Counted from the stretch's first letter, positions 1-51,778 are shown. The stretch: DNA of 51,778 bases from Psammoneis japonica (GCA_008632985.1 QPGO01000025.1:620001-671778), one strand, 5' to 3'. Notes: generated by a model not told the origin, from the sequence alone. A program made the numbers and translations.

Positions 1-1890
1 TGAATGGCTCTTCTGCACCCAAGTTGAAGTCCTGCAGAAGCAGGGAGGCAAGACATGATCACATGAGTGCTTCATGACAAACATCAATTGTGCCTGCAAA
101 ATTGTCATCCGTGTGTCTCGTTGCACTTGCAGCATGGTCATTCACAACAAATGCAAAGACAAGATGAAGAAGCGACACCTCTCTTGCTGAGATGGAAACA
201 GTGTCTCTGGTCTTCAAGCAGCCATTGGGGTGGACTTTTCTCCTGTGTAGTTTCATCAGTGGTGTTGTGCTTGTTGCTTGCATCACTTGGGTTTGCATCT
301 TTGCCAGGAGCATTTTGTGTGTTGCTTGCATCACTTGGGTTCACACCTGAGCTGAAGCTGGGGTGCATTGTCATGGTGAAACCCACCCTCCACAATTTGA
401 AGATGCCACAGCAATGACCCTTCATTGAGTGCAGAATCCCCAAGTGTGAGTGCACAAGAAAGTTGAGGAATCAAAAAGGAAGCTGCACACAACAAGCCAA
501 ACCAAGTTCAATGATCTGTGCAAATGGAAGAAACAACAAAGACAGCAGGCCAAGAGATGCAAAAGCAGACAAGATGCTGCCAAAACCCTTGCCAAAAAAC
601 TGCCCAGGAAATGCTCATGCCCTGATTTGAGCTCCAGCACAAAGAGCGATTCTCTTGGCAATGGACTGTCAAGAGTGTCCCTGTCATGATGGGAGCAGCA
701 TGCACCATGACAAGCCCAACAGGAACCGCAATGAATGTGTTTTCACACTCATTTTCAAAGTGACAAATTTTGATGCTGACCCCACAATGTTTGGGAATCC
801 CTGCACAAGCAAGGGCCAGACTGGCCCCACGAGGCATGCCAACTCGTCCAATCCCGAATTGCTTGAGTTTGTCTTTGCTCAACTGACATGCTGTGGATGA
901 CATGTGCACGAGGGCAAGGAAAAAACTTAAGAAAGGTGCAACAATGCCACACTGGATGAAGGGTGCTTGAGCAGCACAGGTTGCATTTGTTTCCTTTGGT
1001 GCCACATTCCCCTGAGTCCTCTGGCATGGGCAGTGTTGACAGCGACCATGCTGTTGATGATGTGACATCTGTGCAACTCATGGGCTCAGGTGGGAGCATG
1101 CCATGCTGGGCAGTGCTCTTCTTTCTTCAAACCAGCATGTTGTGGGTCATGAACGAAGATCTCTGTGTTGCACTCAATGCAAATGAATCAGCAACTTTGA
1201 GACAGCTGTGCACGAAACACCTTTTGTCCTTGGTGACAAAATGAGCTGGGACAACAGAGCAGACATCTGCACAAATGTGCTGCACTGTCCTGGTTGAAGG
1301 TGCAGTCTTCATCACCTTCTGCAAATGCCCAAGCGATTGACAGACTGACAAAGTTGTGGCACAAGGCGACATTGCCCAACAAAGAAAGAATTTGTTCTGG
1401 ATGCACGCAGCATTCCATTTCCTGACCAGAGAAGTACATTCTGCCTCTCTTGGCTGCAATGGCTGCAACTGTCAGCCCTGATGTTCTTGCAGCCACATGA
1501 AGGACCCACAGCACCAAAGTGGCCTCAAAGAACTTTGAGGCATCCACGCCAAGAGAGAGAGTGCGCAAATGGGCCTCAAACAACTCGCAAGTCGGCACCA
1601 CTCCATCAAACTCATGGATCTCACAACTGTCCTCAAATGCATGGGCTTGCAACAAGACTGATGCAAATCCAGGCATCCCCTGAAACCACCAGCGCAGTTG
1701 GGTCCAAAGAGGCGCAAGAAGCTGAGTGAGCCCCAACTGGTTTTCTTGGCCTCTGTCAGTGAAGAATGGATCAACAGCAGCGTTTGCTTACAAAACCACA
1801 GAAAAACATCTTCAGTCCTGCTCCAAATGCTGCTTTGTAAGTCAGGAGAGGAAAGTGGTGAGCAGAGTCAAACCTCTCAGCTGTCTGGCA
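1..1890. mobile_element. Degenerate repeat/TE-derived block, strongly TpA- and CpG-depleted; family not identifiable
   Basis: Only a handful of TA dinucleotides in about 1.9 kb, with a CA/TG excess. ORFs are Tyr-poor and Cys/His-rich. Same composition as the block holding recognisable Copia elements at 38-45 kb. Short tandem duplication at about 270-345. Confidence 0.55.
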
Positions 1891-2133
1891 CTAGAACAAA
1901 TAAAATGTGCTGGCAGCGTGAAATAGCGCGACCATCTAAACCCGATGGGTAAACCAACTGCGCCAAAATAACCATCGCGAAACTTTCTTCGAACTTTTTA
2001 ATGCAACGGAGAAAAAGGCCCACGCCACGTAGATTTCTACGTGTCGTGTACCACGGCGCCTCCATTGCAGACAATCTCTTCTCGTTCGAACGCTCTCACA
2101 ATTTCTGAATTGCTCGTCAGTTCACGGTCCACC

Positions 2134-16567: not shown

Positions 16568-17877
16568 TGGTCTAAGTTGTTAAGACTTTCGGCAGCAACT
16601 TTACTTCCAACTTGACCTGGCGCCTGGCGGAAGCTTCAAGCGGCTTCGCAAGTCGCAAAACAAGGACCTGCGAACCAGAACCCGGAAACCCAAGCGGAAA
16701 AAACCGACGTTGGAGTTTCGGTCAGTGCTGTGACGAAATGTGATTCCGTATTCCATTAGGAGCACCGCTGGAAAGAAGGAACTTTGATTTTGAAATCCGT
16801 TTTCTCCCTCCAAACTCCACGAACCCGCGAAAACCGACATGCACCCGCCGATCACCGACCAAACGGAAGAACAGAACCCATGAAACCCAAAACGAAGCCA
16901 CCCTTGCATCATCCGCTTTCTCAACGACACACCGGCATTCACCTGGTGTGGTTCCCTTCACCATCGACCACCTGGCAGCCCCCCACTGCATTGCTCACCG
17001 CCTTCTCTCAGGGGCCAACCATGAACACCCCATCCCTGCCCTGTCAGCCCCACCCTGGAACACTGAATTCTCTTTCCAACATCCAGCTGCCCATGCTGCG
17101 TGCGCTCATGCCAAATCATCGCCGTCTGCCATCCTCCCTCTGCTGCCACACCACCGCTTGGCAAAACACATGCCCGCCGCACGCTTCGGCCTGCTGAACC
17201 ACCACACTTTTGCTCAATCACAATGGGGCCTTCAAAGCCTGAGCCTTGCAATTGCCAAATCGCTCGCTGACCAACACTGACCCAATGCTCCGCCAAATTG
17301 CAGCCCCAGCTCTCCAACCCACCCAACCCAAAACCCATCCCTTTTCCTGCCTGCATGATGACTCAGCAGCCATGAGAAAGTCAGGTTGTCTGGCCATGAC
17401 TCAGCGGTGGGAGGGTGGTGCAATCTCTGCTCCAGCTGGCTGCTCCACTCTCTCTCCAGTGTCCAGCCCACCAAGCACCTCACAGTTGAAGTAAAAACCT
17501 CAATTGAGGCAGTTTTTTGACCCCCCTCGATGAATCGACAAAACGTTCGTAGCCCTCAAGTGACATTAGAATGTTGTTCTCAATGCTTCAAAACCTCTTG
17601 AGGCAACAATCAGGCTCTTTGTTTGCTGTTGACCACACATTTTCTTCTTCACCTTGCAACAAGCACATGACATGAAACATGTGTTAAATGCAAGATGACA
17701 TGGTGGTTGAAATCTTGTCAAAAGGTTGTTGTGAATGTGATGGGCCACTTTTGCACCCCAAGTTTGTGGCCATTTTGTGGATCTCAAGATTCAAATTTGG
17801 TGCAAGTGAGTGCATTGCACATGCAAAGCAAAAGGTGTTGCGAGCATTGCAATGGCTTTGTTGTCATTGCAAAGACT

Positions 17878-18790
17878 GCAACCAACCAACCAAACCACTG
17901 AGAATTGAGGGCATTGAGGGTCTCACTTGGAACCAAAGGAACACTTTGAGAACAGTGGTTTGGCGCCATTGCAAGGCTCATCTGGTGCATTTGCAGCCAC
18001 CAGCAGTCACTTGATCCACGCCAGAGTGAGAGCTGAAACTCCTGACTCCAGAGTTAAAAGACACACTGATGCAACCAACCAACCAAACAACTGCAGGCTG
18101 AGGGGATTGAAGGTCACCAGTGGACCCCAGGGATCACTTTGAGAATGGTGGTGGAGTGTTGCAAGGTTCATCTGGCAAAGTTTCTCCCACCAGTCACTCA
18201 CAATCCATGCCAGAGTGAGAGATGAGACTCCTGACTCCAGAGTCAAATGACACACTGATGCAACCAAACAACACAACAGCTGCATGCTGAGGGCATTGAA
18301 GGTCTTCATGGGGCCCCAGGTGACACTTTGAAAATGGTGGTGGAGTGTTGCAAGGCTCATCTGGTGTGGTTGCTGCCACCACCAATCACTTGCAATCCAT
18401 GCCACTGGAGCAAGAGCTGCAAAACTCTCGTGACTCCAGAGTGAAAGGACACACTGACACAGCAAACCAACCCAACAACTGAAATCCAAGGACATTGAAG
18501 GTCTCCAGTGGAGCCAAGGAAACACTTTAAAATGTTGCTGGGGCATCAAACAAGAGCTCATCTGGTGCAGTTGCAGCCAACAGTCATTCAATCCATTCCA
18601 GAGTGAGACCTAAAACTGCTGAATCCAAAGTGAAAGAGGGCCCTGATGCAGCCATCCAACCCAGCAACTGCAGGCTGAGGGCATTGACAGTCTTCAGCAA
18701 AACTCATGGAACAGCTTGAGAAATGTGGTGGATTGTTGCAAGGCTTGCCAACAACCAACCCAACAACTGCATGCTGAGGGCATTAAAGAC
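17878..18790. repeat. Degenerate tandem array, unit about 190 bp, 4-5 copies
   Basis: Recurrent gcaaccaaccaa..aactgca.gctgagggcattgaaggtc...acactttga.aa...gcaaggctcatctgg...gactccagagt. Confidence 0.8.
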
Positions 18791-20059
18791 AAGTTCGGTG
18801 CCCTGCAGAAAACAGCAGATTTGAACAATGTTCCTCTTCCAAGCACACTTGTGGATGATGGTTTGCACAGCAGAGCAAAGATTCTCTTTTGCAAACCAGC
18901 CAGCAGAGCATTTTTTAATGCACGCAATGACACCCCAGCATGCGGTGCGAACCAAGCATTTGCCTTGCCCAAACCTTTTGCCATTGTGCTTTGTGCGTGT
19001 GCATGCAGCCCACATTCAGCCTTTGTGCTGCAACATTGCAATGAGACCGGTTTTGGTGCATTTTGTCAAATCAACCATTTTTTGAAACCATCAGCATTGG
19101 GGACAAAGGGTGGCCCACATCATGGCCAGATGACCTGACTTTCCCACAGCTTCATTTTGCTGTGATTTGTCGAGTGTTTGAAAAACAGCTTTTTCGATGT
19201 CAATGCCCACAAAAACATCCACAATGCCCACGCACATTGCCTGGCCTTGTTTGAGCCATTCTTTTTCATTTTTGTTCATTGAAGACATGGGTGTCACTTT
19301 GAGGAGGTTGACTGGCCAGGTGAGGCCCTTCTTGGTTTGGCAAGAAATGGTGCTGTGGTTTTGTGGCAATCGAGGGTCTTTTTGCTGGTGCCCTCCATTT
19401 CTGAGTGGAAAAACCCATGCTCTGATGTTCATTTGTTCCTGTTGCCTCCTCTGAGGATGTCCATTGCTGTCATTGACTGACCGCAGTCACAAAAAGTTTC
19501 CCCTGTCTTGGCCATGCTGTCGTTTGTCGGAAGCAATGCACTCAACGCCGATGTTTCAGCGCGCCATTGCTGTTCAGTGCTGACAATCCCACCAATCCAG
19601 TCAAGGTCTTCTGTGCAGCAGCATCCAAAACAAAAGATGAGTGAGCAGTCAGCCACCTGACCTCAGAGATGCAAGTGATGCATCTGGCATTTCTTCTTGT
19701 TGCACCTCTGTGGACCATTCCCTCATGTCATTTTTGGTGTGTTCTCTCAGCGAGTCAAAAGGCAAAAGTGCTTGTCATGCTTTCTCTTTGACTCATTTCA
19801 TTGCACACCTCAATGGCTCACACATTCACTTGAGACTGTGCGCAAATCATCCAGGGTGTTGACAAAGCAGCCAGCGCACAAGTGTGAGTGAATTGACTGC
19901 CGCAAAAATCAAGTTGGCTGCTGCTTTTGCTTTCTTTGTGCACGTTTTGGCTGCAGCGTGTCATTCCCATTGCTTTCTTTGTACAAAATTGGCTGTGACA
20001 TTTGCTGCAAATGACATGTCAATCATCCATTCAATGAAAACTGTGCAGACAGCAGGAGA

Positions 20060-20625
20060 GACCCGCCACCTCCGACAACAACGACTGAGTGTGTGTGGTG
20101 CATCAAAAAATGCAGTGTTCTGGCCTCTTGTGCTGCACCTCCAAGACCACAAATTGCAGCAGATCAGATGTGTGTCACGTCACAACAACCCAAAGAAATG
20201 ATGGATGCCCCATTTTGACATTCTGTGTTGCTTCTGGCCCCACGAGCGACCCGCCACCTCCGGCAACAATGACCAAGTGTGTCCAAAAAATGCAGTGTTC
20301 TGGCCAATTGCTGCACCTCCAAGACCACAAATTGCAGCAGATCAAATGTGTGTCTTGTCATGACAACTCAAATCAATGATGGATGCCCTGTTTTGACACT
20401 CTGCATCGTTTCCAGCCCCACAAGCGACCGGCAACTGCCGACCGAGAACCAAAGCGTGAAAAAAATGTGTTGTGTTCCGGCCTCTTGCTGCACCACCAAA
20501 ACCACATGTTGCAATGGCTCAAGCATGTGTCTTGTCATGACAACCCAAAGCAACACTGGATGCCCTGTTGCAGTTTTCTGCATCGTTTCCAGCCCCACAA
20601 GCAGCCGGCAACCAACGACCAGAGA
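20060..20625. repeat. Degenerate tandem array, unit about 178 bp, 3 copies
   Basis: Recurrent aaaaaatgcagtgttctggcc...gctgcacctccaagaccacaaattgcagcagatca...gatggatgccc...gccccac.agcgacc. Confidence 0.85.
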
Positions 20626-21436
20626 AAACAAAAAAAACCTCCACGTCCATCTGGGTGCCAAAGAAACACGAAACCTTTGAAAGATGCCAACAACAAAACA
20701 ACTGCACCACCAAACTCAGCACACTCGAACTGCCTTTCACCAATGTCTGACGCCAAAATGTCGTCCCTCTGATGGCTGGTTGATGAGTGGAGCCAAGTTT
20801 TGGAGACAAAAACAACCACACCCTGCCCACACAAATGCAAAAGAAACTCAAAAGCTTTTGAAGACACCAACAAAAACAAAACACCACTGTGCTCACCATG
20901 TTTGAATTACCTTGTGCCAATGCTCTTGCCGCTGCGACATTGTCCCAGTTGCGGGCAGGCACTCAACGCCTCCATTTGAACAAACACATGTCCAACGCTT
21001 TTGCTGTGATTCATTGAATGGCCAAACAAACAGCTTTCCGACGACAATGCCCACAAAAACATGCACAATGCCCACAATTCGCGAATCAATGCCCAAGCTC
21101 AACGCATTCTTGCTCTAATTGGGCAGGAACTCAACGCCTCCATTAAAATAAATGTGTGTCCATCGCTTGAAGCTACTGCAGCGCAGCGCAGCGCAGCAGC
21201 AAGTGCTGTAAGTAAGCAACGCAAGGTCCACCTTACTCCGCGTCTGTCCCCCCCCGCGCGCCACTACTAGCTGACGTTGCAGCACGTGAACCCCCATTTT
21301 CGCGTAACCTTACCCTTACCGCCAAAAAATCTCGCACCTCGCACCTCCCATTTTCACGGTTGTCTTGTTCTGAGGTCCACCGTATAAATACGATAAATAG
21401 CATTTGAAATCAACTCGGCAAGTGCGAACTGCAGCA

Positions 21437-25308: not shown

Positions 25309-26869
25309 CACCCCTGTGGTAGGGGGAGCTGTGTGTGTGTGCGTGGTTGTGCGCGCACGGCTTCTCCGTGCGTTGAGTTTTAATGTCAACATCCACACGA
25401 GTGTGTGCACTCCACAAGCAAAAATTCCTGTTCCACAGCTCCCCTGAAACTCCAACCACCAAAAACCGAGGGGTCGGAAGCGCACTTTTTGGAAGACAGC
25501 ACACACACCAAAAAAATCACGCGTTTTTGACGACTCGACCATGAGGATGCCTCGTGGTTCTTCCCCATCGCCTTCCCAGGACGCCGATCCTGCTGATGCC
25601 GTTGCCAGTGACACTGATGCAACAGGCAATGTCATCACTCCGGTTCTCGTGGGTGTGACACATGCAAAATAAGATGCTACAAACTCACACTGTTGTTTGC
25701 ACGCTCCACAGCCTCCCACAGATGCTGTCACGAATTCCAAAGCCACACCTGCGTTTCGGGCCCCTGGCATGTCCGACACTGTTGCTCCTGCCCTTGCTGC
25801 CGCAGGCGCTGTTGATGCTGTCATTGTCTTTTGCCAATGACATCCACAATGAAGTGCCAACGACTCACACTTCTTTCATTCTCACCCCACCGCCTCCCAC
25901 AGATGCTGTCACGAATTCCAACGCTGTGCCTGCGTTTCGGCCCCCTGGCATGCAAGATGCTGTTGATCCCACCCTTGAGGCAACATCATGGTCGAGTCGT
26001 CAAAACACGTGTTTTTTTGTGCGGAGAAAAAGAGCTCCCAGAAGTGCGCTTCCGACCCCTCGGTTTTTCGTGGTCAGAGTTTTAGGGGAGAATGTGGTTC
26101 AGGATTTTTCCTGTTGCCATTGGCACTTGTGTGCAAATGCACAAATGAATGTGAGGACATTTGCATGAAAACACAATGAATGAGATGCAAACTGCCACGT
26201 GACCATGACATCACCACATTCTCCCGGGCATGCCAGGGGGCCGAAACGCAGGCACGGCGTTGGAATTCGTGACAGCATCTGTGGGAGGCGGTGGGGTGAG
26301 AATGAAAGAAGTGTGAGTTGTTGGCACTTCATTGTGGATGTTGTTGGCAAAAGACAATGACAGTGTCAACAGCACCTGCGGCAGCAAGGGTGGGAGCAAC
26401 AGTGTTGGGCATGCCAGGGGCCCGAAACGCAGGTGCGGCTTTGGAATTCGTGACAGCATCTGTGGGAGGCTGTGGAGCGTGCAAACAACAGTGTGAGTTT
26501 GTGGCATCTTATTTTGCATGTGTCACACCCACGAGAACCGGAACAATGACATTGCCTGTTGTGTCAGTGTTGTCAGCAACGGCATCAGTAGGATCGGCGT
26601 CCTGGGAAGGCGATGGGGAAGAACCACGAGGCATCATCATGGTCGAGTCGTCAAAACGCGTGATGTTTTGGTTTGTGCGCTGTCTTCCAAAAAGTGCGCT
26701 TCCGACCCCTCGGTTTTTGGTGGTTAGAGTTTTAGGGGAGCTGTGGAATAGGAATTTTTACTTATGGAATATACACATTCGTGTGCATATTAACATTAAA
26801 ACTCAACGCACGGAGAAGCCGTGCGCGCACAACCACGCACACACACACAGCTCCCCTACCACAGGGGTG
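25309..26869. mobile_element. Non-autonomous foldback/MITE-like element; inverted arms of about 645 bp (25309-25953 and 26228-26869) around a spacer of about 274 bp
   Basis: Starts cacccctgtggtagggg and ends cccctaccacaggggtg; the arms align throughout. Each arm holds a direct repeat of about 60 bp (25711-25771 / 25892-25952). The spacer holds a third partial copy of the subterminal segment (about 25985-26090). Confidence 0.88.
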
Positions 26870-27041
26870 CAACATCCTCTGTCCTCTGTCTGCTTCCTCC
26901 GTGGTCATCATAAGATCACCCAGTCGCCGACCACGTCCCCCCACCTTCAACTCACGACAACCCACGACAGCGGCACATCTTTCTTGCTCAACACAAATAC
27001 ACATTCGTTTACGTTGAGTGCGCCTGAGACGTTATCGAACC

Positions 27042-28787: not shown

Positions 28788-29103
28788 TGATCTCGATGAG
28801 ATTGTCTTGAGCTCATTTGGGGGGTGGAGCACTCAAGCAATGTTTGCCGAATTTACTCATCCGTTTCAACAACCAATGCATGACGCTGAGACCATCACTT
28901 TGGAAGTATCCCCTGCAATCCTCGATAAATGCTTCGCGTTCAATGTCGCGTCTGCCACGCAGGAGCATGAAGCGTTAGTGGAACCGGAGCATGAATCCCC
29001 ATCTCTAAGAAGGAACCGGAACAAGACAAACATGGTGGCTCGTCCTCAAATGGCAATGGCAATGACGACTCTGGAGTAAACGAAATTGTATAAAGAATGT
29101 GCA

Positions 29104-29285
29104 GACGCCATTTCATTCTCTGGCAGCCTGTTGTCTCTGTCCAAAACAAGCGGCGATGGGTAAGCAACAGCTTTCCCTCGGTCGGCCCATGATCAGCACG
29201 GTACGAAGTATTGCTTTCAACAGGATTCTCGGCACGTAGGTGGTATCATAGGCTTCTTTCAACGGATTTCCTTACTCGTCCCTGT
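29104..29285 (-). pseudogene. Diverged duplicate of the 3' end and downstream flank of the gene at 33146..34027
   Basis: gacgccatt...aaaacaagcggcgatggg...gaagtattgctttcaa.aggattctcg...ggtatcataggcttc...caacggatt...ctcgtccctg aligns with about 33081-33263. Confidence 0.85.
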
Positions 29286-33080: not shown

Positions 33081-33145
33081 GACGCCATTACATTTCTGTA
33101 AGCCTTTGTCTCTGTTAAAACAAGCGGCGATGGGGTTAGAAACAG

Positions 33146-34027: not shown

Positions 34028-34235
34028 GCTCTGTTCTTCACATTGTCACGAACCAGAACGAAGAGGAAACCCACAACATCAACCTTCAACAATCAACGCG
34101 TTCGGGTGTGGTCTCGTGTGCTCTTCCCGGACCGCTTGTTCGTTTGTCTGCGGCGTGCATGCGCGCGATAGCGGAATGTTGCCAGTTTGAGTTTCAAGTT
34201 GCAAGAAAAAAACGACAAGCTAAAAGCAAGGCGCA

Positions 34236-36227: not shown

Positions 36228-38386
36228 CAGCAGTAAAGCCGTTAGAGGTTTGTCTGCTTTTTTTAATTAGGTATGGTTGTCTAACAAACAAACACTGTAG
36301 CATCGGATGCTTTGGCGGGCCGGCATTTTTAACTTTGTGACCTGCGCGGCTAAGTAGCAGGCCCTGCGAGTGCTAGCTCTAGAGAGTAGAGAGGAGTACG
36401 TCGGGCTCTAACGCAGCGAGTGCCTCTCCCATCATGGCTGGGAGCGGCAAGCGAGGACACCGGTAGAAATAAATGCTACGGCAGGTAGACTAGCTCTAGC
36501 TGCACGCAGTTCTGGCGGTCTGCACGTCTGTCATCAAGTCGCTTCAAGAGGTTGTGCTTGCAGTGGAGATGTTCTCCGTTGACACTCGGTCACGACCCTT
36601 GTTTTTTAATCTGGGTGAGAGAAGGTTGATTGTTCCTTGCTTTGTTGCAGGCTCTGTTTATTCTGAGACAAGAAGGTGAGACCAGTGGAATTTGCTCCCT
36701 TTGTCAGAGAGTTGCATGTGACTTGTTCTTGCAGCTGGTGTTGTGTGTGGCAACGTCATTGTGATGTGGGCAGAAAGCAGCTGGCCTGATGGCTGTGACC
36801 AAATGGTGTGGAGAGAACACAAGCACGCAGCCATGTGACATGGAACTTTCTAGAGCAAACATGGACTTGGGTGGCCTCTCTGGTTCGCGCACTTTGCCCG
36901 TGCATTGGGTGGGTGCTGCGCGGGCGGCACACGGTCTCGCCACCAGCCATCCCATTGCATCAGTCAGCCATGCAACCCTGTTTCTGCAGCACCTTTTCTG
37001 CATGGAATTTGCAGTGTGGGGAACATGCTGACTGTGCAAAAAAGTGCAAACATGTCCTCACAAATGTGTTTTGCTGAGCAGGTGCCAGTCATTTTTTTAA
37101 TCGGGTTTTTTCAACAGCTTGCTCACTTGTTGTTGCAGATGGCAGCAGCTGTGCCACCTGATGCTGACTTGGCATCAACTGCTTGCAGTGTGGGCTTGGT
37201 GGCTCAGCATGCATGGGTTGTCAACAATGAAAGATTCATTGCATCAGAGCCTCGGCATCCACCAGTGCTGACCATGCTGCCACGCAAGTGGCCACGCATC
37301 TTGCAGCTCATGCAAACAAAACAAGATGTGCTGGCCTTGGCACTGTTCAGATTGAAAGGATTCAGGTTTTGGCACCCCACTTTGGCCACAGCTCTTCTTG
37401 TTTTGCACTTGTGGCAAGAGAAGAGATTGGATGTTTTTCACTTTGTTGCAGGCTCTGTTTTTGTTCATCCAGAAAGACAGCATGAGACAACCAGTGGAAA
37501 AATCTGCTTGGAGGGTTGTGCACAACTGCTTGCAACCAGCAGACCTCCCAAGCTGGGAGTGGCTCATGACCAAAGTTGTGTTGTCCTGAGTGCAAGTGCA
37601 GCTGCAACAGCTGAGAGTTGGACAAAGAGGAAGACAGCTGCAGTGCAGTGGCAGTCAACAGGTCTGCGACAACTGTGAGATCATCAACCCAGAGTTCAAG
37701 CAATTGTTGGCATCAGATGCACTGGCTGCCCAAACACATGGTTGGCAGAGGCACACATGCACACATGTGCTCACATCAGCACACACACCTTGTTCACTGG
37801 ATCCTTTCAAACTTGTGCTGGTGGCTTCAGCAGGCATTTGCAGCAAAAGGTCAGATTGGGCAACTCAGCGCTGTCCAGCCCCACAGCTGGGATGCATTTG
37901 GGGTGAAAACCTTGTTCCTGCAAGAAGCCCATTTGACCCACCCTGTTGGAACATTCAGATCATGGGGATCCCAAGGAACCCAGATGCACTGATGGAAGAG
38001 CATCTTTGGTTGCTGACATCACATTTTGGTGACTGTTCTTTGAGGATTTTTCTCTGTTGTCAACCCCTCTTGATTGCGTTTTGATGTCACTCTTTTGAGT
38101 GATTCATCTGGCTCATCAATCTGTTTGATCTGTTGGTTTCAACAAGTGCCTGAGTTGTTGTCATTGCAAGTTTGAAGTTGCAACACAGTGAACTTCCAGG
38201 CAAACCACAGCCAACCAAGCAGCCAGGGCAAGCATGACAAGCAGCACAGGAAGCTTTGTAAGATTCCCTTTTGGCAGCATTAACTTGCCAGTTCAACATT
38301 TTCACTCAGAAGAATCATTGGTGCCATTGGAAGGCTTGTCACCCACTGAGCTGCCATCAAGCAAAGACTGCACAGCTGCACAATGA

Positions 38387-41300
38387 GTGGCAGAGGAAGA
38401 GGTTCAGGTGGAAGAGACCAAGGAAGAGGAAGTGGCTGAGGCAGAAGTGACAGGAGTCACAGGTCAGATCAGAAGAAGATTGCCTTTTAACAAAACAAGC
38501 TTTCAGCCTGAGATGATCCACCCTTCATTGCTGAACAGCAATTCTTGTGATGCAACATTTGAAGAGGACATTGATGAGAAGCTTGAGCACTTGACACAGA
38601 AAAAATGCAAGCAAGGTGTCCACCTGACAAAGTCCATGGAGGAGAAAATGGAGTGCATGGATTTTAGCTCTGAGAAGCCCACATTGAAGAGCTTGTCAAT
38701 TGCCCAACCAAAAGACAACCGCAAGATGGCCAAGAAAGAGCAAGAAGAAAAAGCACTCAAGTGCAAGCACAGAGTTGAGCTCAGTGACTGCCACAGATGG
38801 TTGAAACAGCTCAAAGAGTGCAAGACTGCCACAGTTGCCAAGATTTTAGACAACTCCTGCACCAAGCAACACAATCAGTCCCTGACATTGAACTCCATGA
38901 GAGGTTGACATCTGTTCCACATGCTCACTGAGGCCATGAAGAACATCCTGCAAGTGAGACAGCAAGAGAATGAGTCATCAAATGACTGTCTGTCAGGGTT
39001 CAAAATCAATGAGATGCCACAAGAGAGGTGCTGGGAAAGGAGATGCTAAATGAATTCATTTCCAATGCTGCAGAATTCAAAGATGCCAGCACAAGCAAAC
39101 AAGACAAAATGAAGGATGCAACATTTGACACATGGATGACTCACCTGTTCATAGATGACAGTGACAACTGCTGTCACAAGAGCCTGAAAAAGAGCTTTGT
39201 GAGAGACTGCAGTCTCAGACGGAATGTGCACCCAAAGACTCTAGACAGGGTGTGATGGATGTGCCGCTGAACCGTCCATTGGACAATGACCCCAAGAACC
39301 ACCACAAGAGAAGAAGAACAACAAATGAAGAGATGAGAAGGGCAACGATGATGAGAGCAGCAGGTCTGACAATGCAAAGGACCAGGGTCATGCCCAGAAG
39401 AGCAGCAACAGTGACACAACGTCATGCCACTGCTGTGGTGAACCAAATCCCAGTCCCCCAATGCAAGCACAAGAACAACATTGCGTTCAATGACTGGTTC
39501 AAGAACACTGGAAGAAAACCAGGTGCCAGGAGGGCAGAGCCATGCACAAGCTTGAGGTGGCAATGAAGACCACTCATTGGTTGGAAGCAATGACACAAGC
39601 ACTGACACCACCAGATCTACCCAGTCAACATGTTCCACCCAAAGCAGAGGAACAGTGGACTGGATCACAGCTGGTTGATGTCAAACCAGACATGAGCACA
39701 AGCCAAGCTGACACAGGCATCAAGGGCAACAAAATTGTCCTTGACAATGGTTCAACCCTCAGCATGGCAGCAAGCTGGAAGTTGGTGCACAACATGCAAC
39801 TGGCAAAGACCAAGATTGATTTGTCCATGAATGCAGGAGTGGATGCCCTGGACAAGGACTGTGCCATGTGTGGATGGGGGGGGNGGGGGGGGGGTGCATG
39901 AAGCTCAGATCAAAGGATGCAACAGCAAATGTCCTGAGTCTAAAGGATGTGACAAGCAGACACTGTGCAACATGCAACAACAGAGTGCCAGATGAGCTCT
40001 GGCTGCTGAACAAGAAGACTGGCAAACAAGAAGCAGAGTTCAAGGTCATTGACATTAGACTGCATGCACTCATGCTGAGCCAGCAATTCTTTGACTGCAT
40101 CAAAGGACTCCAAGAGAATGAGTCACATGCAAGCATGTTGTCAAAGAAGAAGACAAAAAAGAAGCAAAAACATGGCACAAAGTGCAGGAGCGCATCCAGA
40201 ACTGTGGCTCTGACTGTGGAACAGAACTCCAAGGGCTGCTCCAAGAGGGAGGCAGCAAATGCCAAGTGAGTGTTCAGGCTGTGTTGCAAGGCTGAAACAC
40301 CCAGTGCAAGAGAGTTCAAATGATTTTTGCACACTCTGATCAGGTGAAGAATCTGTCCATTGCACCAGACGATGTTGACAGAATGGTGGCCATTTGGGGT
40401 CCACCTGTTGACATGTTGAAGGGCAAGACCAAGTGTGCGCATCTTTCCCATGAGAGGAACAACATGACAGCCATCCCACCTGAGATTTGTGAGAAGTAAA
40501 GAGAAGGCATGATCCTCTGCATTGACATCATGGAAGCATGCAGAGCCAAGCCACAGCACACAATTGACATGACAATCAAGTGCCAATCAAATGAGAGACT
40601 GATGAAGCACAATGAGCATGCTGATGTGTGCATCACACTGGACATGACTCTCTGACAGCACAACATGGCACTGTTCAAGATTGGCTCTGTTGAGAGTGAT
40701 CACAAATTCAAGGCTGTGCTGGCCAAAGCAGCAGATGGCATGAGTTTGGAATTGCTGGATGTCAACACTGGCAACCATGTTCTAGAAGTGAGGTGGAGCA
40801 TTGAGACCATCAAGGAGTGAACCTGCACCACTGCACACCACCCGCCATGCAAAATGACACCCAAGGTGATGTGCAAGCATGTTGTGATCAAGAATGCTGT
40901 CATGTCAAACATGCACCCACAGAAGGAGGGGTTCTCCAATGCATGCAGTCCATGCACCATCATGCAGCAAAGGAACCTCAACTGCAACAAGCCCTTTGAG
41001 TTTAAATTTGGAAATTGAGAACAACCCTGCCAGTGCAATGGACACATGCAGTGTTGACAGCGTGCATCTGCAACCATGGTTTGCTTGCCCAAGGGTTGTC
41101 ACTACACTGTGAACCTGCACACAGCAAAGCTTCTGAACCCCCTCCCCCCATGAGTGCACCACAGCCCCACTGACTGAAACACACATCCAAACAGCCAAGA
41201 AGATGGCATCCTCCCAAGGCATTGAAGACTTCAAGTTCACAGGGAAGTGCAGTTATGATCTCTGTGATGCTGGTTGGAGCAACTGCAGGAGTGGGCAATG

Positions 41301-43430
41301 AAGGCAACAGCAAAGACAGTGACAGCAACAGCAAAAGCAAAGGCAAAAAATGCACAAGATGAAAGTGACACGAAAGTTGTCACTGATGAAAAGTCAGATG
41401 ACAAGGAATGCAAAAATGACTCAGATGAAGAGTGCAAAAAAGCAAATGATGCATTGGCTCCTGACAAAAGTTTCAGCCCCATTCACCAACAGAAAAACCA
41501 AGTGTCAGATGAAAAAGACTGCAAAGAACAAGATGGAAGACAAGGGATGGTGATGATCTGCCAGAAGATGACACAGAACCCCAAGAAGATGCTGGGTGGG
41601 ATGCCAGGATGCACAACACAAGGTGGAAAGTGCTTCAACACCACACCATGGGTCAGAGCACCCACCAAGAGACAATCCAAGAGCAAGACAGTTTGATTTG
41701 CAGGAGTGCTGGGAAGCACACCAAAGAGAAGCACAAGCAAAACATCATTGAGTGCTGTCACCACTTGTGAGCCAATGTGAGCCAAATTTGGAGGATGACA
41801 TTGAGTGCAACGTGCAAGCCAGAAAGTTCATTGCACAATTTGTGTGTGAGATCAATGACCAAGTGCAAGCAAGGAAGGATGTTTCCTTTGCCCAGAAACA
41901 CCTGCCACTCAAGGGCCTCAAAGCATTTGGCCAGAAGGGGCATGGTGCCTCAGCAAAGGAAGTTGAACAACTGCACAACCAAGTGTGCTTTGCACCAACA
42001 TCAGCAGAGGACATGACTCTGAGCAAAAGGCCCAAAGCCATGACAGCCTTGGTGCTCCTGACAAAAAAACAAGATTGTCGAATGATGGGTGCACACGATT
42101 TACAATGGGAAATCAACCAGAGAATGGCTTGACAAGAATCAGTCAGCAGCCCAATGGCATCATTGGAAGGAGTGCCAATGACAGCCATTGTCAATGCCAC
42201 AGAAGAGCATGACACAATGAGCACACATGCTCTGAGTGCATTCACTCAGATGTTGATGCCAGAGCCTGAGCAAGGTGAGGACCGGATCACAGTGAAGATC
42301 AGGAGCATTGGCAGACATGTTGGTGAACATCAATCCCAACCTGTGCTGACCACATGTGGTCATGGAAAAGAGGAAGAGAGTCCTCTGCACCCAAGTCATC
42401 AGCGCTGTTCATGGTGTGTTGGTTGCAGCTCCATTGTGGCATGAGAAATTTTGCAAAGACTTGAGAAGATTGGTTTGAATTCAACCTGCACAATCCATGC
42501 ATTGCCAACTGGCAAACAGTCAATGTGGCGAGCAGCACACAATGCATTTCCATGTGGACAACCTGATGTTGAGCCACATCAACCAAAAAGTGAAGAACAA
42601 TGAGTTCCCAAGCTGGCTGAACAAGATGTGCAGAAGTCATGGCAAGGTCATGGCAACCCAAGGGGAAAAGCATGACTGCATTGGAATGCCCCTGGATTGC
42701 ACTGCTGAGGGCAAGGTGAAGGGGGCAGGTTGACATGATCAAGCACTTGCAAAAGATGATTGATGAGTTCCTGCAAAGGATCAAGAGTGTGGATGTCATG
42801 ATGACACCAGCAGGACACAACATGTTTGATGCCAGTGGCACGAGGCAGCCAACCAAGAAAGCAGAGACATTCCACACATGGGTGGCCAAAGGACCATTTG
42901 CTTCCAAGAAAGGCCACATGGATGTGGCCACCCACTGTTGCAGCATTGTGCATGAGAGTCAGAGAGCCCGCCAACAAGGATTGGGGAAGTTGGTCCATTG
43001 TGTCAAGCACCTGAACTGGATGCCCAATGACGTTGCTGCTCTGAGTGCAGAGATGACCTCCCAGCAACAAAGTGGTGCATGGATGCATTGTTTGCTGTGC
43101 ACCCAGAATTTACAATCCACTCAGGAGGAGCCATGACAATGGGCAATGGAGCAGTTCAAGCCATGTTGAGGAGGCAGAAGCTCAACACCCAAAGCAGTGC
43201 TGAAGCTGAGCTCATTGAGTTGATGATGCAATGACCATGATCCCATGGATGAAGCCATTCATGGAGCACCAGGGGCACCCACTTGACAACAATGTCCTGC
43301 ATCATGACAACAAGACTGCCACTCGGCATTTCTTTGTTGCCAATCAGACTGAAAAGGGCAACCTTAGAGTGCAGCATTGCCCAACCAACAACATGTTGCA
43401 AGAAGACTTCATGACAAAGCCATGGAAAAA
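38387..43430 (+). mobile_element. Degenerate Ty1/Copia (CoDi-like) LTR retrotransposon internal region (gag-PR-IN-RT-RH)
   Basis: Protease IVLDNGSTLS; integrase-like NHVLEVRWSIETIKE; RT LKGLKAFGQKG...EVEQLH, FHVDNLMLSH...HDCIGMPLDC; RNase H QKLNTQSSAEAELI, LHHDNK, RHFFVANQ...QHCPTNNM.EDFMTKP. Domain order PR-IN-RT-RH matches Copia. LTRs not resolved. Confidence 0.88.
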
Positions 43431-43439
43431 TTGGTCATT

Positions 43440-45050
43440 CCATGCCAGAGTGAAACTCAGACCACTGGCAGCACTTGGCAAAGCTGATGCTGTGCTCTCA
43501 ACAGAGCTCAGTTCAGCATCAACATCAAGCACCATTGCAGACCTTCAGCAAGGCTCCAAGCACACAAAAACAATGCCATCTCCTGATGCAGTCCAGTGCT
43601 CAACTTCCTTGGGCAAGCTTCCCAGCTCAGGCCAGCAGCCTGAGCTCAGAGGCAAGAAAGCTTCTGTTCCAAGGAACTTTCTGGCTTTCTTCAGCTCAAC
43701 TTGAACATCTGCAACTGGCCTCTTGACACACAAGGTGCAGGGCATTGCCTGGTGTGTCTTGCTGCTGCCCAAGTCTGACAGAGCTGTGTGCCATGCAAAC
43801 ATGCAATCCTCAACTGCCTTTGGGTCATGTGATGGATGCATGAAAGGTCATCTGCACACAGCTGCATGATGCTGCATCCAACAGTGCTTGAAGCCACCTG
43901 GCTTTGTTGCCTTCTTTAAAACCCAGATTCCTTGATCTGCCATGTGTGGCTCAAAACTGGTGGTGTTGTGAAGAGCAGCTTGTCAACTGTCTTAAACTCT
44001 GTTTCCCAAGCTCCAGGTGTGCATCAAGTGTGGCAATTCTTCTCAGTGGGCACTCAGACATGCTCCAAGCACTGATGCTCAGAACATCCAAGTCATTTGC
44101 AGTGGCAGCAGCAGCAAGCACAATCCTTCTTGTGCTGTCATGTGGCACAACACCTGAGCAAGGGGTGGACTCCTTTGGTGGATCATTTTGATGCCCTCCA
44201 GCAATGAACCACGCTTTGTGCTGAAACTCACTTCTGACATCAAGTGCTGTGCAACAATTGATGACATGCTGCTTCCACCCCCCAACTGGCACCATGTTGC
44301 CATTGGAAAACTCAAAGGCTGCCGTTGAATGTTGTGCTTTCTTTTCATTGGCCTTCATCCAACAATCAGCCCCTGTGCTGGCACCAACCTTGCAAAAGTG
44401 CTCTTGACACCTTTGGGAGCTCAACTTGAGAACTTGTGTGTGCTTTTTCACTTTCATCAGGGTCTGGGTGTGGCATCTTGCAATGCCATGCACCCAGCAA
44501 TTGAATGCTGGCACCCTTGCCATCTTGTTTGGAACAGCAAGCTTGGCAATCTCAGCTGGATTTGACTCGGTTGTTCAGGTTTGACAAAGGTGCTGACAAA
44601 GTTGTGCCACCTCTCTGCCACCACCCCTCAGATGAAAAGGCCATCCAGTGGTGGCAGTCTTCCTTGGAACCTTCTGTTGCCATGTTCAGCATTGATGTGC
44701 TCATCATCAGCATTGACAGCACAGCCCAAGTGCTGCATCAGCAACCCATGATCTCCTTCATGATCTGACAAATGTTTTGCCTTTGGCCAGCTTGGGTTTT
44801 CCATCTGACACCAAGGATTGGGGCACATGCTGACTCTGCAAATGTGGGCCACAACCACTTCCAGCAGACAATGCTCTTTTGATTTCCAAAGGTGGAAATG
44901 ATCATGACCACCATGTCCATCAGCAAAAATGCCACAAGAACAAGTCTTCTTGCCACAAATTGATTTGACCTTAAAACATGTTTGGTTGTTGGCTTGAGAG
45001 CATCAGATCAAGCTCTTCAAGTGTTGTCCCCTGCCTCAGATCAGCAATCA
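43440..45050 (-). mobile_element. Second degenerate Copia (different CoDi-like lineage), partial IN-RT, convergent with the first
   Basis: PAFNCWV...AFEFSNGNMVPVG...DVRSEFQHKAWFIAGGHQNDPPKEST..GVV..DS..I...ANDLDVL; RT catalytic remnant LCADDLSCI / SHDPKAV. Confidence 0.8.
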
Positions 45051-47369
45051 CAGCAAAACCTTGCACAGGAGCAGTGCAGCTCCACATGTGAAGCCATTGT
45101 GTCCACAACAAGTTGAAAAAGCTGTGAAGGCATTAGAGCCCAGTTGCTTGAGCAACTCATGTGTTTGCCAACAATCACAATGCAATGCTTGTTGCAAAAA
45201 ATGACCAGCCAGCAAGGCACCATTGCGCCAGCACCAGTGCCCATTCCAGGCTTCCAAGCAGGTTGTCCATGCACCAAGGTCAACAGCTCTGATGAAGTGA
45301 GCAAGCATGGCTGGCTCAGCTGAGAATCAGACAAAAAGAAGTCCTGCAGAGAGCAGTGCAGCACAACAACAAACAGGTTCTGCATTGTGCAGCTGTGGCA
45401 GTGGCTGCCAATCTGGTTGGACCAGCTGTTGGCTGCAAATGTGCACATTGCGCAAACACAGCTGGCATGCTTTCACACACACAAGTGTTTGTGTCAAGTG
45501 CACATGCACTTGCTCATTCCAACAAGGGAGCCATCCACAACTGCCACCCAAATGAGTTGTTTCACCAAATTTTGGAAAAGGCTTTGTGCTCCTGCTTGGG
45601 AAAAGATGCAAAATGGTGGTGCCACAGGCATGCAAAGACTTTGTTGCACCAAAGATGAAACAAGTTGCTGCCCTTGTTGGCAGCAAATGTGAGGTGTTTA
45701 AAACTTGCAACCTGAGCTTTCTTGGCTTGTGTCAAAGAGTTAACATGAGAGGCAGGAGGCCCGCTTTGGCACCATGTCAATGTGCAGATTAACTCACAGG
45801 CTTTTACATCCCTCCACTTCTGTGTGACTTTTTAGCATCTTAAGACCCACCCGCCAAGGCATTGTGGCCATGTCTTTTTGTGCAAAGTGCATGTGCAGTG
45901 CCAAAGTTTGAGTGCCATGCTGTGGAGCCATCACATGCTCATAGATCAAGATGTCAAAGTGTGCATTTTAAGTTTGTGCCTGAGAGCAGAAAGCACCCAG
46001 CCGGGAAAAAATCCCACCCTGCAGGGCTCTTTTTTTCATCGCAGGGTGCCCAGCAAGTGATGAGCACCTGCATCACATGCAGAATCCTGTGTGCACTGGC
46101 AGCCCTTTGGCTGCAGCTCTCTGACAGCTTAAAAAACACAAACAAACAAACAAACAAACACAATGAAGACAGCCATGAGCTGCTCTTCTCATGCCTCTTC
46201 TGGCAGTGAGATTGGCCTCTGCACTGGATGAAGACAGCAGTGCTGTCTGCCTGACATCTTCCAAAGAAGTGCCCACTGCTGGCACAAGCACAAGCAACAA
46301 GTGGTGGCAACAGAGCTGCTGTTGTCCCCAAGGTTGTCACACCATCAATGAAGGGTGTTCTTGATGCCACTGCATCAAAAGATGCTGGAGCATGGGCAGC
46401 TCCAAAGCTGCATTGGTGGGCTTCTTGCATGCCAAGTTGGCGCCCATTTTTGTCAAAAACAAAAGAGCCACTGCACACTGCATTTCTGTGAGTTTGTGCT
46501 TCAGTTTCCAGGCCTTTGAAAAGGCAGCTGGTGAGCATTGTTGTCATGCCTGAATTTGCACTTGTTTGTGTTTTTCCAGTGCCAAAATCCAACTTGTCAT
46601 GAGGTCTCAAGTTGCAATCTGGTGCACTTCAAAGGAGAGAGTGGTGTTTCACAGAAGATTGAAAATGACACTTCTTGCTCTGCAGAGCTGCACAATGAAC
46701 CCAACTCACAAGAGCCAACATCACCAGAAATGCATGAGACTGAAAAAGGAGTGGAAAACAGAGTGGAGTTGCTCAAGCACTTTTGAGTCTCCAGCTCAAA
46801 GGCACCCTTCAAGACAAAAAGGTGCAGCTTGGATGCAGCACAAATGTTGCAGCATGGACCAAGTTCTGATCCATCTGAACATGAACCACAAGGGCACATT
46901 GCATGTGCGCTCAAAATCAAAACTAAAACCCACAATCTCAAACTGTTTACAGGCTCTCAAATTGGCTGCCTGAGCCCATGTCTCACATTCCTGTGTCACT
47001 TCTTGTCAGTTTCAAAGATGCGCTCTGTCTCTTCAAAATCACAACAGTCAAGTCCTTCCCTGCTGAGGGCTTTGATTGTTCGCTCATTGAACTCCATGTT
47101 GGTCCCACGCTTTGTTACAACAAGAGCTTGTTCGAGAAATGGCGGCTTCATGGTTTTATTTTATGCGCGACTAATTTGTTAGTCGACAGTGCCCCGGCTA
47201 GGGCCCTAAGTTATTTCCAATCCCAACTGGGAGGTCTTGGTTATTTCTTGCTGTTCCGCCTGCCTGCTGTCGTCTCGCAAGCCAAATCAATGTCACTGAA
47301 GCTTTGGTTTGAGGGGACCAAGAAGTGCTGTAGCAGCATCACATAACAGGAACAAAAATTGACACTCAA

Positions 47370-49986: not shown

Positions 49987-50199
49987 TCACGATTTTCCTT
50001 CTCACTTGTTCTTCCTTCGGCTGACTTGTTCCAAGCGAAATGAGGAATAGAATGCTACTACTTACCGTACCTAACTAGAGTGCTTCTACAAGGCTACTGT
50101 ACGGAACCAAGTAGCGTAGGGCCCTGCTCTAGCTATTAGACCTATACCTTACTTCACTAGCTACCATAGTAGCAGAGACTACCGACTACCGTACCGGTG

Positions 50200-51450
50200 G
50201 AGGTCTGCATTCTTCATTGTTGTTTGTATCAAAAAAGCCCAAAAACCGGGATTATTTTTCTGTGGACGACGGACGTACCCTCTCTTTCTTTTTGTTGCTT
50301 GGAAAAACTTTGGGCGCAGCTCTTTTCTGAGACTCCTTGGCTCTGTTGTCAGCCCTGCCCCCCCCCAACCCTGGATGAGGAGAGCATTTCAGCATGTTTG
50401 TGTTGGCAGCTGCCATGTGCTGCTGCACACATCCGAGAAAAGGTCTTGTCAATGTTGGCTTTCGGCTCACACATGTGAGTGACACACAAGCAGACACACA
50501 CACACGCACATGTGCGCAAGTGTTTGGCAAGGGGACACCCCCCCATTTCTGAGTGTGTGCTCAACATCAATGCCATGTTCCATGTGGTCCTCCATTTGAT
50601 CACTGTGCCAAAAGCAACAATCTGTGGCCACTGTGTGCAAACAGTGTGTCGGTCCTCTAAAAAAAAACAACAACAACACCCAACTCTTTGGCACTGCAAA
50701 GTTAAGATGTGCTGGGCTCCGGTTTGATGCACAGCCCTGTGACCGATTGGGGGTGGGAGGTCATCAAGGATGGGCCATTGTTTGGTGCTGTTTTTTTTAG
50801 TGGCTTGTGATTTCGCCCTGTTTTCCGGTGCTTTGCCTGGGCCTGCTTTGTTTTGCAGTGTGCCCCTGAGCACCCCAAAGCAGCTCTCCCTTGGGGCTGT
50901 TGAAGGACATCTGTGTGAACCACACTTTGCTGATCTTCAAGCACCAATTCTCAGATTTAATGCTGTTGTTGTGCTCCACAAACCACTGTCATTTTTTTCG
51001 AAAACCACACTGCTTGTGGCAGACAAGCCACAGCTTCTTCAGGAAATGCTGACAGCTTGCATTTGACCAGCTGCAGATGTGTCCTCAGTTGCCAAGCTGT
51101 CATGCATGGTTGCAAACATCATCTGTGCATTCTTTGATTTTTCAAGAAAAAGTTGTGTGCCATCTCACAACAGAGGGAATGTGGCCAATGACCATGGTGG
51201 AGAGTCTTGAGAGACAGCCACTCTTGTGTGCAATGTGCAACCCTTGTTGGTCAGTCTCACGTGAGTGCTCAAGCTGGAAAAGAAACCCTTCAATTAAGTT
51301 GGACATTCAAGGTCTCAAAAAGCAAGGGCCTCAATGAGCAGCACTCTGGCTGCAATCATTTTCAATGTGCAGATGCTGGTGGGAGCACTGTTGTCCACTG
51401 ACAGAAATTGAAGGCAAATGGCAAGAATTCAAACAATGACTCCTGCTGCT
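50200..51450. mobile_element. TpA-depleted TE-derived block, family not identified
   Basis: Abrupt loss of TA after about 50300, with a CA/TG excess and Tyr-poor ORFs. Confidence 0.55.
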
Positions 51451-51778
51451 GTCTAATAGCAGATGAGTCTCCGCTCAGAGACCGTCACAGAGCGCGAAAG
51501 ACGTGCAAGTCGGCAATCGGGCTACTGTATGTCATTCTTTGGAGCCTTGTGGCTCGAAAGCAAACTGATCGCGTTGAACGCGCGGAACTAAAGCACACAA
51601 AAACTGTGCGCGGTAAACTAAACAGCGCGCGTATGCTTCGCGCGCATCCAAATCCTGTTCAAATCCTGTCACTCCCCAGTTTGCTTGAGAGCCACAGAAA
51701 CAGATTCGACTTCGGATGGAATGAAGTTCCAGAAACATGAGGGGGCGGAGAAGTCCCAGATTTGGGAGCAACCCCAAT

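Follow-up and report, generated by a model that had tools for sequence, protein, structure and literature searches.

Probable domain-restricted hypermutation of TpA to CpA and TpG in repeat and transposon DNA of the diatom Psammoneis japonica

A stretch of 51,778 nucleotides from the diatom Psammoneis japonica (GCA_008632985.1, QPGO01000025.1:620001-671778; referred to as the window, with positions counted from its first nucleotide) contains five blocks in which the dinucleotide TpA (TA) has nearly disappeared, CpG (CG) is depleted to a varying extent and CA and TG are in excess. Very likely, these blocks result from in-place, domain-restricted hypermutation of TpA to CpA or TpG, together with CpG decay. 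A regionally targeted process would turn TpA into CpA or TpG by A:T->G:C transitions on either strand. It would act within discrete repeat or transposon domains, almost to saturation and at least two orders of magnitude above background substitution. A second, slower process in the same domains would be the ordinary CpG->TpG/CpA decay of methylated cytosine. Jointly, the two would erase both self-complementary pyrimidine-purine dinucleotides and leave the GC content unchanged. Diatoms are a major group of ocean primary producers and, to our knowledge, no cellular process that drives A:T->G:C hypermutation of resident DNA was known before 2026.

Results and Discussion

Five blocks of deviating dinucleotide composition

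Observed/expected ratios (o/e) of dinucleotides were scanned in 500-bp windows across the 51,778 nt, and two composition states were seen. The majority of the DNA has a TA o/e of 0.4-0.9, with CG at about 1 and CA/TG at about 1.1. Five stretches are in the other state, with TA at 0-0.13, CG at 0.0-0.7 and CA/TG at 1.6-2.2, and in these, too, G+C is near 0.48-0.50. Boundaries were set with the help of TAs that have neither a preceding T nor a following A (VTAB), as distinct from half-sites, which are TTAB or VTAA. Outside the blocks, VTAB sites follow each other at a mean distance of 40 bp, the largest gap over 769 intervals being 325 bp. Inside, gaps reach 4,839 bp, and such gaps delimit the five blocks, none of which is assigned to a strand:

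1..1892, block 1, TA/CG-depleted (TA o/e 0.03, CG 0.17; VTAB gaps 248-1435-1892)
16749..21174, block 2, TA-depleted with partial CG loss (TA o/e 0.04, CG 0.33; VTAB gaps)
25320..26589, block 3, TA-depleted with CG largely kept (TA o/e 0.08, CG 0.66; VTAB gaps)
36497..47199, block 4, the main TA/CG-depleted domain (TA o/e 0.05, CG 0.09, CA 1.82, TG 2.01)
50276..51457, block 5, TA/CG-depleted (TA o/e 0.10, CG 0.23; VTAB gap)

Block 1 starts at the left end of the window and is hence cut by it. On its left side, block 4 begins abruptly, within about 100 bp, with 14 TAs in 36330-36497 and 4 in the next 1.7 kb. Its right edge is a transition zone:

46924..47242, no strand, right-edge transition zone of block 4 (half-sites are 10 of the 11 TAs)

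The half-site excess in this zone looks as if VTAB sites had been lost first, and so fits the context hierarchy described below. From the VTAB gaps and the sharp edge of block 4, the affected domains are bounded and the neighbouring host genes unaffected. A first-pass annotation, made from the sequence alone, had described five sharply bounded blocks low in TA and high in CA/TG, adjacent to DNA with normal TA usage. The VTAB gaps and the pooled ratios place the blocks where it had put them, and the sharp boundaries beside normal genes, with a non-block TA o/e of 0.58, confirm the normal surroundings. The co-depletion of CG had not been stressed.

Counts were pooled over 18,003 bp of block DNA and 31,083 bp of non-block DNA. 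The blocks contain 60 TAs (o/e 0.05), as compared to 1251 (0.58) outside, and 214 CGs (0.20) as compared to 1714 (0.98). CA is raised to 2160 occurrences (1.74, against an o/e of 1.15 outside) and TG to 1997 (1.98, again against 1.15), while AA is unchanged (1.16 against 1.15). At the host TA o/e of 0.58, about 674 TAs would be expected in the blocks, so that the 60 observed correspond to a Poisson p of about 1e-205. By arithmetic on the pooled counts, the share of TA and CG among all dinucleotides falls from 9.5% outside to 1.5% in the blocks, and that of CA and TG rises from 14.3% to 23.1%. Given this mass balance, one-for-one conversion of both self-complementary pyrimidine-purine steps to CA/TG accounts for the block composition. 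As CA and TG are present at a ratio of about 1 and AA is unchanged, both strands must have been targeted. The extent of CG depletion varies by block, from an o/e of 0.09 (block 4) through 0.33 (block 2) to 0.66 (block 3).

One of the mechanisms suggested by the first-pass annotation was repair of heterochromatin by an error-prone polymerase of the Pol eta type, with its WA->WG bias. Pol eta causes A:T->G:C changes with a preference for a 5' T or A, and to this extent would yield changes of the type seen. However, the undepleted AA makes this a TA footprint rather than a WA footprint, which contradicts Pol eta, and near-complete saturation would be hard to attain through sporadic repair patches. 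We consider this mechanism highly improbable.

An inverted repeat cut by a block boundary

Self-BLAST revealed an inverted repeat of 645 bp at block 3:

25309..25953, + strand, arm A, contained entirely in block 3 (identity to arm B 93.3%)
26228..26869, - strand, arm B, with the block 3 boundary (about 26589) cutting through it, so that its outer part, 26590-26869, is outside

This allows a comparison of two zones: an outer zone of 280 aligned columns, where arm B is outside the block, and an inner zone of 362 columns, where both arms are inside. In the outer zone, 9 of the 11 TAs of arm B correspond to CA or TG in arm A and 2 are kept, with no case of the reverse. CA<->TG double swaps, where one copy has CA and the other TG, are absent, CG is intact in both arms at 18 of 19 positions, and there are 6 other mismatches. 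In the inner zone, the single TA of arm B is not converted in arm A (0/1) and one TA of arm A is converted in arm B. Here, there are 7 double swaps and 4 other mismatches, and CG is intact in both arms at 13 of 18 positions. Extrapolated from the outer part of arm B, with its 11 TAs in 280 columns, the 362 inner columns should originally have contained about 14 TAs. If each was resolved independently in the two arms, as CA or TG with equal frequency, about 7 swaps are predicted, which agrees with the 7 observed.

According to our own arithmetic on these small numbers, TA loss in the outer zone amounts to about 1.7 per site, against a background of about 0.011 per site per lineage, i.e. TpA conversion is roughly 150-fold above background. 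It is also estimated to be far faster than CpG decay, given 9 changed TAs out of 11 and a single changed CG out of 19 in the outer zone (small numbers, again). The conversion edge follows the domain and not the repeat, and this points to targeting by chromatin or a DNA mark instead of homology-based targeting as in fungal repeat-induced point mutation (RIP).

Double swaps were also found between the units of two tandem arrays in block 2, identified by TRF:

17877..18745, no strand, tandem array of a 189-bp unit, 4.5 copies
20104..20602, no strand, tandem array of a 177-bp unit, 2.8 copies

Two pairs of 189-bp units differ by 11 and 4 swaps and the 177-bp units by 10, so that the range over the four in-block pairs is 4-11, whereas neither of two repeat pairs outside the blocks has any. 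One control pair without swaps is a 220-bp direct repeat (29065-29284 and 33042-33263, 83% identical) in normal TA-containing DNA. Comparison of the copies shows that conversions arose in place, after the sequences had entered the genome, independently in each copy and symmetrically with respect to strand; the outcome, judged from the same comparisons, is CA or TG at roughly 50:50.

A Copia remnant that has lost its tyrosines

Block 4 contains a transposon remnant that was recognized by tblastn and phmmer:

39847..43491, + strand, decayed Ty1/Copia remnant (integrase, reverse transcriptase, RNase H) with stops and at least five frameshifts

When 21 full-length relatives were used in tblastn, the only stretches with Copia homology were 39847-41147 and 41800-43491, both on the + strand. 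The matches are colinear with the full-length relatives (integrase, then reverse transcriptase, then RNase H) and occur in changing frames, from which the number of at least five frameshifts was derived. A phmmer search with the read-through frame covering reverse transcriptase and RNase H retrieved 1082 relatives at E <= 0.001 (best 2.8e-34), and 9 of 10 relatives scanned match RVT_2, the Ty1/Copia reverse transcriptase domain. By self-BLAST, the region of 36.5-47.2 kb yielded no direct repeat and thus no flanking pair of long terminal repeats. A Pfam search directly on the remnant gave no relevant match, either with the six read-through frames of block 4 or with four frame pieces at E up to 10, and a word-indexed homology search with the read-through polyprotein gave none at E <= 1e-10. 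From its sequence, the remnant is an old, decayed copy.

The remnant was compared column by column with Copia relatives of normal Tyr content. None of the 20 Tyr-consensus columns has kept its Tyr; the codons now specify His (10), Cys (6), Trp (1), stop (1), Ala (1) or Phe (1). Control columns are largely kept (His 10 of 13, Phe 17 of 25, Pro 14 of 20). The first-pass annotation had listed motifs in which His or Cys replaces a Tyr that is typical of Copia elements, and six of them fall on Tyr-consensus columns:

42677, + strand, HDC
42698, + strand, LDC
43276, + strand, QGH
43300, + strand, LHHD
43327, + strand, RHFF
43375, + strand, QHCP

A further motif, CADD, had been assigned to a second element. 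It is found on the minus strand at 43858, but its surroundings could not be linked to any reverse transcriptase, neither by Pfam nor by tblastn with the Copia relatives. The direction from TA to CA/TG, as had been proposed, is supported by three lines of sequence comparison, namely the inverted repeat (9 against 0), the double swaps between in-block repeat pairs, and the loss of Tyr at 20 of 20 columns.

Among former Tyr codons in 39847-43491, those after G have become His in 8 cases and Cys in 2, those after C have become Cys in 3 cases and His in none, and after T we find TTG- three times and TCA- once. These are small numbers, and the preceding base may have an additional effect on whether His or Cys results.

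The distribution of His and Cys bears on ADAR-like A->I editing of retrotransposon transcripts that becomes fixed by reverse transcription. ADARs prefer a 5' U (as cited in bioRxiv 10.64898/2026.01.13.699255), and one of the blocks does contain a retroelement. However, RNA editing predicts A->G on the sense strand only, whereas Tyr codons gave His (T->C) in 10 cases and Cys (A->G) in 6. Moreover, tandem and inverted repeats as well as flanks at single-copy depth are converted equally, and the domain edges do not coincide with the Copia element. The data contradict RNA editing, which is the least probable of the alternatives that we have weighed.

Tyr-free Copia sequences also exist in public data. 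Among the 150 best public relatives, 23 (P0135, P0139, P0144 and 20 others) have together 4 Tyr in 4,692 residues, as compared to 3.48% in the normal set, and are enriched in His, Cys and Met. At Tyr columns, some copies have His and others Cys, e.g. 11 and 8 at one column. P0139 is an uninterrupted, Tyr-poor Copia ORF of 541 aa on an assembled contig of 2,381 nt; in a homology search with it, none of the 119 other matches had below 1% Tyr. A metagenome scan returned 77 Copia loci, all of which are TA-normal (o/e 0.36-0.91), so that there was no independent TA-free DNA among them.

An ORF such as P0139 could be taken to indicate that the blocks are foreign DNA that was already free of TA and CG on arrival, or belong to a transposon lineage that avoids TA and CG by selection. 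Long ORFs are, however, expected by chance in such DNA, because TAA and TAG cannot occur. Several observations contradict a native TA-free composition. The arms of the inverted repeat, which are 93% identical, differ in that one has kept TA where the other has CA/TG, and the boundary cuts through arm B. The CA<->TG double swaps require independent resolution after duplication. In addition, a Tyr column that is His in some copies and Cys in others has not undergone a selected replacement. We therefore regard this explanation as very unlikely.

Flanking-base context and uncoupling of TA and CG loss

The few surviving TAs are not a random sample. TTAA makes up 23 of 60 in the blocks but 48 of 1247 outside (p = 1.6e-17). 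Per kb, VTAB occurs 0.78 times inside and 25.05 times outside the blocks, half-sites occur 1.28 and 13.81 times, and TTAA 1.28 and 1.56 times. Thus, there is a context hierarchy, with the strongest depletion for VTAB, a weaker one for half-sites and the weakest for TTAA, and the sparing is relative, not absolute. In the 77 TA-normal metagenome Copia loci, the corresponding densities are 27.35 for VTAB, 15.81 for half-sites and 2.74 for TTAA, and in the Copia remnant they are 0.55, 1.92 and 0.27, the last one representing a single site. In nearest-neighbour counts, half-sites may lean toward conversion only on their unprotected side, with ratios of 1.5 and 1.9 where 1.0 is expected, the ancestral composition being represented by a proxy.

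The losses of TA and CG are separable. In block 3, TA is at 0.08 and CG at 0.66, and block edges retain clusters of CG without TA. This uncoupling is read as two processes within one domain. For the second of them, the CpG deficit (CG o/e 0.09-0.66) is accompanied by raised TG/CA, as left by decay of 5-methylcytosine (5mC) at CpG, and of the 23 Arg-consensus columns of the Copia remnant 14 are now Gln (5), His (4), Cys (3), Trp (1) or stop (1), with 3 kept and 6 others. Transposons of diatoms are CG-methylated through DNMT5a (PMC9998398), and CpG decay in the blocks would fit such methylation by analogy.

A single process would be sufficient if a dual A/C deaminase acted on both self-complementary pyrimidine-purine steps, on C at CpG and on A at TpA. 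It is true that the same domains have lost TA and CG, with CA/TG as the product in both cases, and ADAT2 enzymes that deaminate A as well as C in DNA are cited in bioRxiv 10.64898/2026.01.13.699255. Against this stand the uncoupled losses in block 3 and at the block edges, and the young inverted repeat, in which 9 of 11 TAs but 1 of 19 CGs have changed; in addition, methylation by DNMT5a (PMC9998398) already explains the CpG decay. A dual deaminase is thus rather improbable, more so than the thymine chemistry considered next.

5-Formyluracil gives A:T->G:C changes, and 5-hydroxymethyluracil of dinoflagellates favours TpA. The TpA conversion might accordingly be the same process with another chemistry, in which the T of TpA, oxidized by a TET/JBP-type enzyme or modified otherwise (5-hydroxymethyluracil, 5-formyluracil), mispairs with G. 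The outcome would be T->C, appearing as A->G on the opposite strand. The footprint is symmetric and TpA-specific, and "T not preceded by T" is as good a description as "A not followed by A". We have found no evidence for modified thymine in diatoms, although no search was aimed at it, and the sole published proposal for the signature, made in the preprint discussed below, is adenine deamination. Thymine modification appears unlikely, but has a better standing than any of the other alternatives.

Sequencing support

Public run X1 contains 98% of the sampled 31-mers of block 4. Contigs assembled from it with exact 31-mers span 33000-51433, with a k-mer depth of 63-65 in block 4 and in the flanking genes alike. 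Equal depth across block and flanks implies accurate reads at single-copy depth and makes a base-calling artefact of long reads unlikely. In 38008-43641, the summed contig depth is 74-265 over bins and at least 116 in nine of ten bins, against 63-65 elsewhere. The extra depth comes from contigs that are 90-99% alike, which indicates that this family has further copies in the same organism or run. X1 contigs differ from the window at 38720, 45226, 44722 and 44147 in block 4 and at 34985 in the flank. Two of the four differences in block 4 are C>T at a CpG that is still present in the window; these could be allelic or reflect CpG decay that is still ongoing at the strain level.

Run X2, from the same sample, covers only the gene-bearing regions 33000-34032, 35407-35771 and 47143-50155, and none of 36130-46771. 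Its coverage resembles that of transcript-derived data, but its data type is not on record. Runs X2 and X3 both leave most of block 4 without cover, and neither has a bearing on expression.

Could modified bases (5mC at CG, modified T or A at TA) have been misread as CA/TG? A symmetric modification that is miscalled on either strand could imitate the random outcome of CA or TG, and block DNA is found in one run only, possibly the source of the assembly. On the other hand, exact-31-mer contigs at a depth of 63-65 across block and flanks speak for accurate reads, and the depletion is clean and near total. The Copia remnant, with at least five frameshifts and wide divergence, is not an intact element in disguise, and Illumina-based data from Bigelowiella natans lines show true mutations of this type (bioRxiv 10.64898/2026.01.13.699255). 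A sequencing artefact is accordingly a very remote prospect.

Comparison with known systems

The closest counterpart is found in the chlorarachniophyte Bigelowiella natans, for which Mettrop et al. report TpA->TpG/CpA mutations in mutation-accumulation lines (bioRxiv 10.64898/2026.01.13.699255). According to this preprint, 230 of the 231 single-nucleotide mutations in two hypermutable regions are of this type, with a de novo rate of about 6e-7 per site per generation. Hypermutation is restricted to integrated viral DNA, namely one giant-virus and one virophage region, coding sequences low in TpA are enriched for reverse transcriptase and DDE domains, and the authors put forward an ADAT2-like deaminase. 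With respect to the preprint, the signature is identical in the two organisms (TpA->TpG/CpA, A:T->G:C only); in the diatom it is represented by 9 conversions against 0 reversals and by His or Cys at 16 of 20 Tyr columns. In both, bounded non-host regions lie beside normal genes and the rate excess is of orders of magnitude, although in the diatom only the Copia remnant has been shown to be selfish and the excess is an indirect estimate from the inverted repeat.

There are also differences. The diatom is a stramenopile, B. natans a rhizarian. The diatom blocks represent a saturated historical footprint (TA o/e 0.03-0.10), whereas the preprint describes de novo events and a Rho of 0.45 for the region derived from a nucleocytoplasmic large DNA virus. 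The targets are a Copia remnant and other repeats in the one case, giant-virus and virophage inserts in the other. CpG is co-depleted in the diatom, while the words CpG, TTAA, context and diatom are absent from the main text of the preprint. Relative to it, the context hierarchy, the boundary that cuts a repeat arm, and the TA loss that outruns CG loss are new. The first-pass annotation had known of no described mechanism of this kind in diatoms. This still applies to diatoms, for which full-text searches found no report of TpA-depleted transposons or TpA hypermutation, but the same hypermutation of foreign DNA has been measured in B. natans in 2026, according to the preprint.

Fungal RIP is similar in being a genome defence with dinucleotide-specific transitions in selfish DNA that leave skewed, sharply bounded blocks. 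Its direction is opposite, from CpA to TpA, so that TA is created, while it is removed in the diatom blocks. RIP is triggered by duplication and hits both copies, whereas the outer part of arm B is unconverted although it is duplicated, and diatom stretches at single-copy depth are also converted. RIP was rejected as the cause because of its direction and its homology trigger. Many diatoms have RID-like DNMT4 genes with no assigned function (PMC9998398). Deamination of 5mC in methylated transposons explains CG->TG/CA but cannot remove TA, and would be the slower of the two processes in the diatom. The earlier statement that neither 5mC decay nor RIP can remove TA thus holds.

AID/APOBEC and ADAR resemble the proposed process as deaminases that hypermutate selfish nucleic acids, and ADAR and TadA/ADAT act on A after U. 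Their targets are cytosine in single-stranded DNA or adenine in RNA, and the footprints that replicating elements acquire in this way are strand-biased. The diatom blocks, in contrast, are resident double-stranded genomic domains in which both strands are affected symmetrically.

Candidate mechanism and points against the overall reading

Provided that in-place TpA hypermutation is real, adenine deamination by a TadA/ADAT2-like enzyme is, by analogy to the proposal for B. natans, the foremost candidate, albeit one that we advance tentatively. Such a deaminase, recruited to silenced domains, would turn adenine into inosine at 5'-TA-3' in DNA. As every Tyr codon and many other codons are destroyed, the selfish DNA would be irreversibly inactivated.

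A number of points weigh against the overall reading of the blocks as hypermutated domains. The mutation rate, the targeting mark and the enzyme are all inferred for this diatom. Flanking context cannot separate adenine deamination from thymine modification, since the two descriptions are complementary. The survival fractions by context depend on proxies for the ancestral composition of the blocks. TTAA is not spared in the Copia remnant (0.27 against 2.74 per kb, one site), and in the arms of the inverted repeat one TTAA is converted and 1 of 4 half-sites is converted on its "protected" side. Only 3.6 kb of the 18 kb of block DNA are provably transposon, and the other 14 kb or so have no recognizable protein domain. 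X1 is the only run with block DNA and may be the assembly's own source, which would not be an independent confirmation. Likewise, the 23 Tyr-free public Copia ORFs may stem from the same diatom and are then perhaps not independent.

The sole prior report, a preprint on a rhizarian alga, deals with regions that, as described there, are still far from saturation. The diatom window would show where the same signature leads in the end, and the process would then be widespread and not a curiosity. A broader proposal, which we consider almost as likely to be right as wrong, is that diatoms and chlorarachniophytes share a defence by TpA-specific DNA editing, which is guided by a chromatin or DNA mark rather than homology and may be ancient in SAR (stramenopiles, alveolates and rhizarians). 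In diatoms it would be saturating and operate beside CpG methylation, and the footprint of VTAB, half-sites and TTAA would mark a DNA adenine deaminase or a thymine modifier. If this is true, the responsible enzyme could be located by comparative genomics. Any candidate enzyme must reproduce the flanking-base footprint. The data further provide evidence for targeting by domain rather than homology, and they rank TpA conversion and CpG decay by speed. Base-editing research would have an interest in a natural enzyme that acts as a TpA-specific adenine editor on double-stranded DNA.

Remaining block content and flanking regions

The first-pass annotation had considered the conversion to be confined to transposons. 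This is established for the Copia remnant at 39847-43491 but not for the other 14 kb or so, which are without recognizable domain and include tandem and inverted repeats. Pfam detected no relevant domain in 32 long ORFs, in six frames of block 4, in 18 frames of blocks 1, 2 and 5, in the CADD region or in four minus-strand ORFs. Weak Pfam matches (CD45, Reticulon, STING_LBD, TreT_GT1 and others) are far below their own cut-offs. As Pfam found nothing here, such blocks defeat transposon annotation that is based on domains; they are detectable instead by a simple scan for TA, CG and CA+TG. An ATG ORF of 265 aa without Pfam match (26357-27154, + strand) extends over arm B and over the boundary of block 3.

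The flanking genes are long unbroken ORFs with ordinary Pfam domains. For the flanking N-terminal methyltransferase gene (21437-22270), the best matches have 65-68% identity and none is identical; the named ones are all from diatoms (Asterionellopsis, Seminavis, Cylindrotheca, Pseudo-nitzschia, Thalassiosira).

At the right end of the window, just past block 5, there is a very high-copy repeat. In 51154-51778, the summed k-mer depth in X1 is about 97,000, as compared to 63-65 in other parts, and there are numerous variant contigs and indels. Rfam recognized no family in this region or anywhere else in the window.

At 35400-36227 on the + strand, a gene encodes a DRMBL domain (DNA-repair metallo-beta-lactamase, SNM1/Artemis type; E = 6e-27). 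The distance from the end of this gene to the sharp left edge of block 4 is about 270 bp, probably by coincidence.

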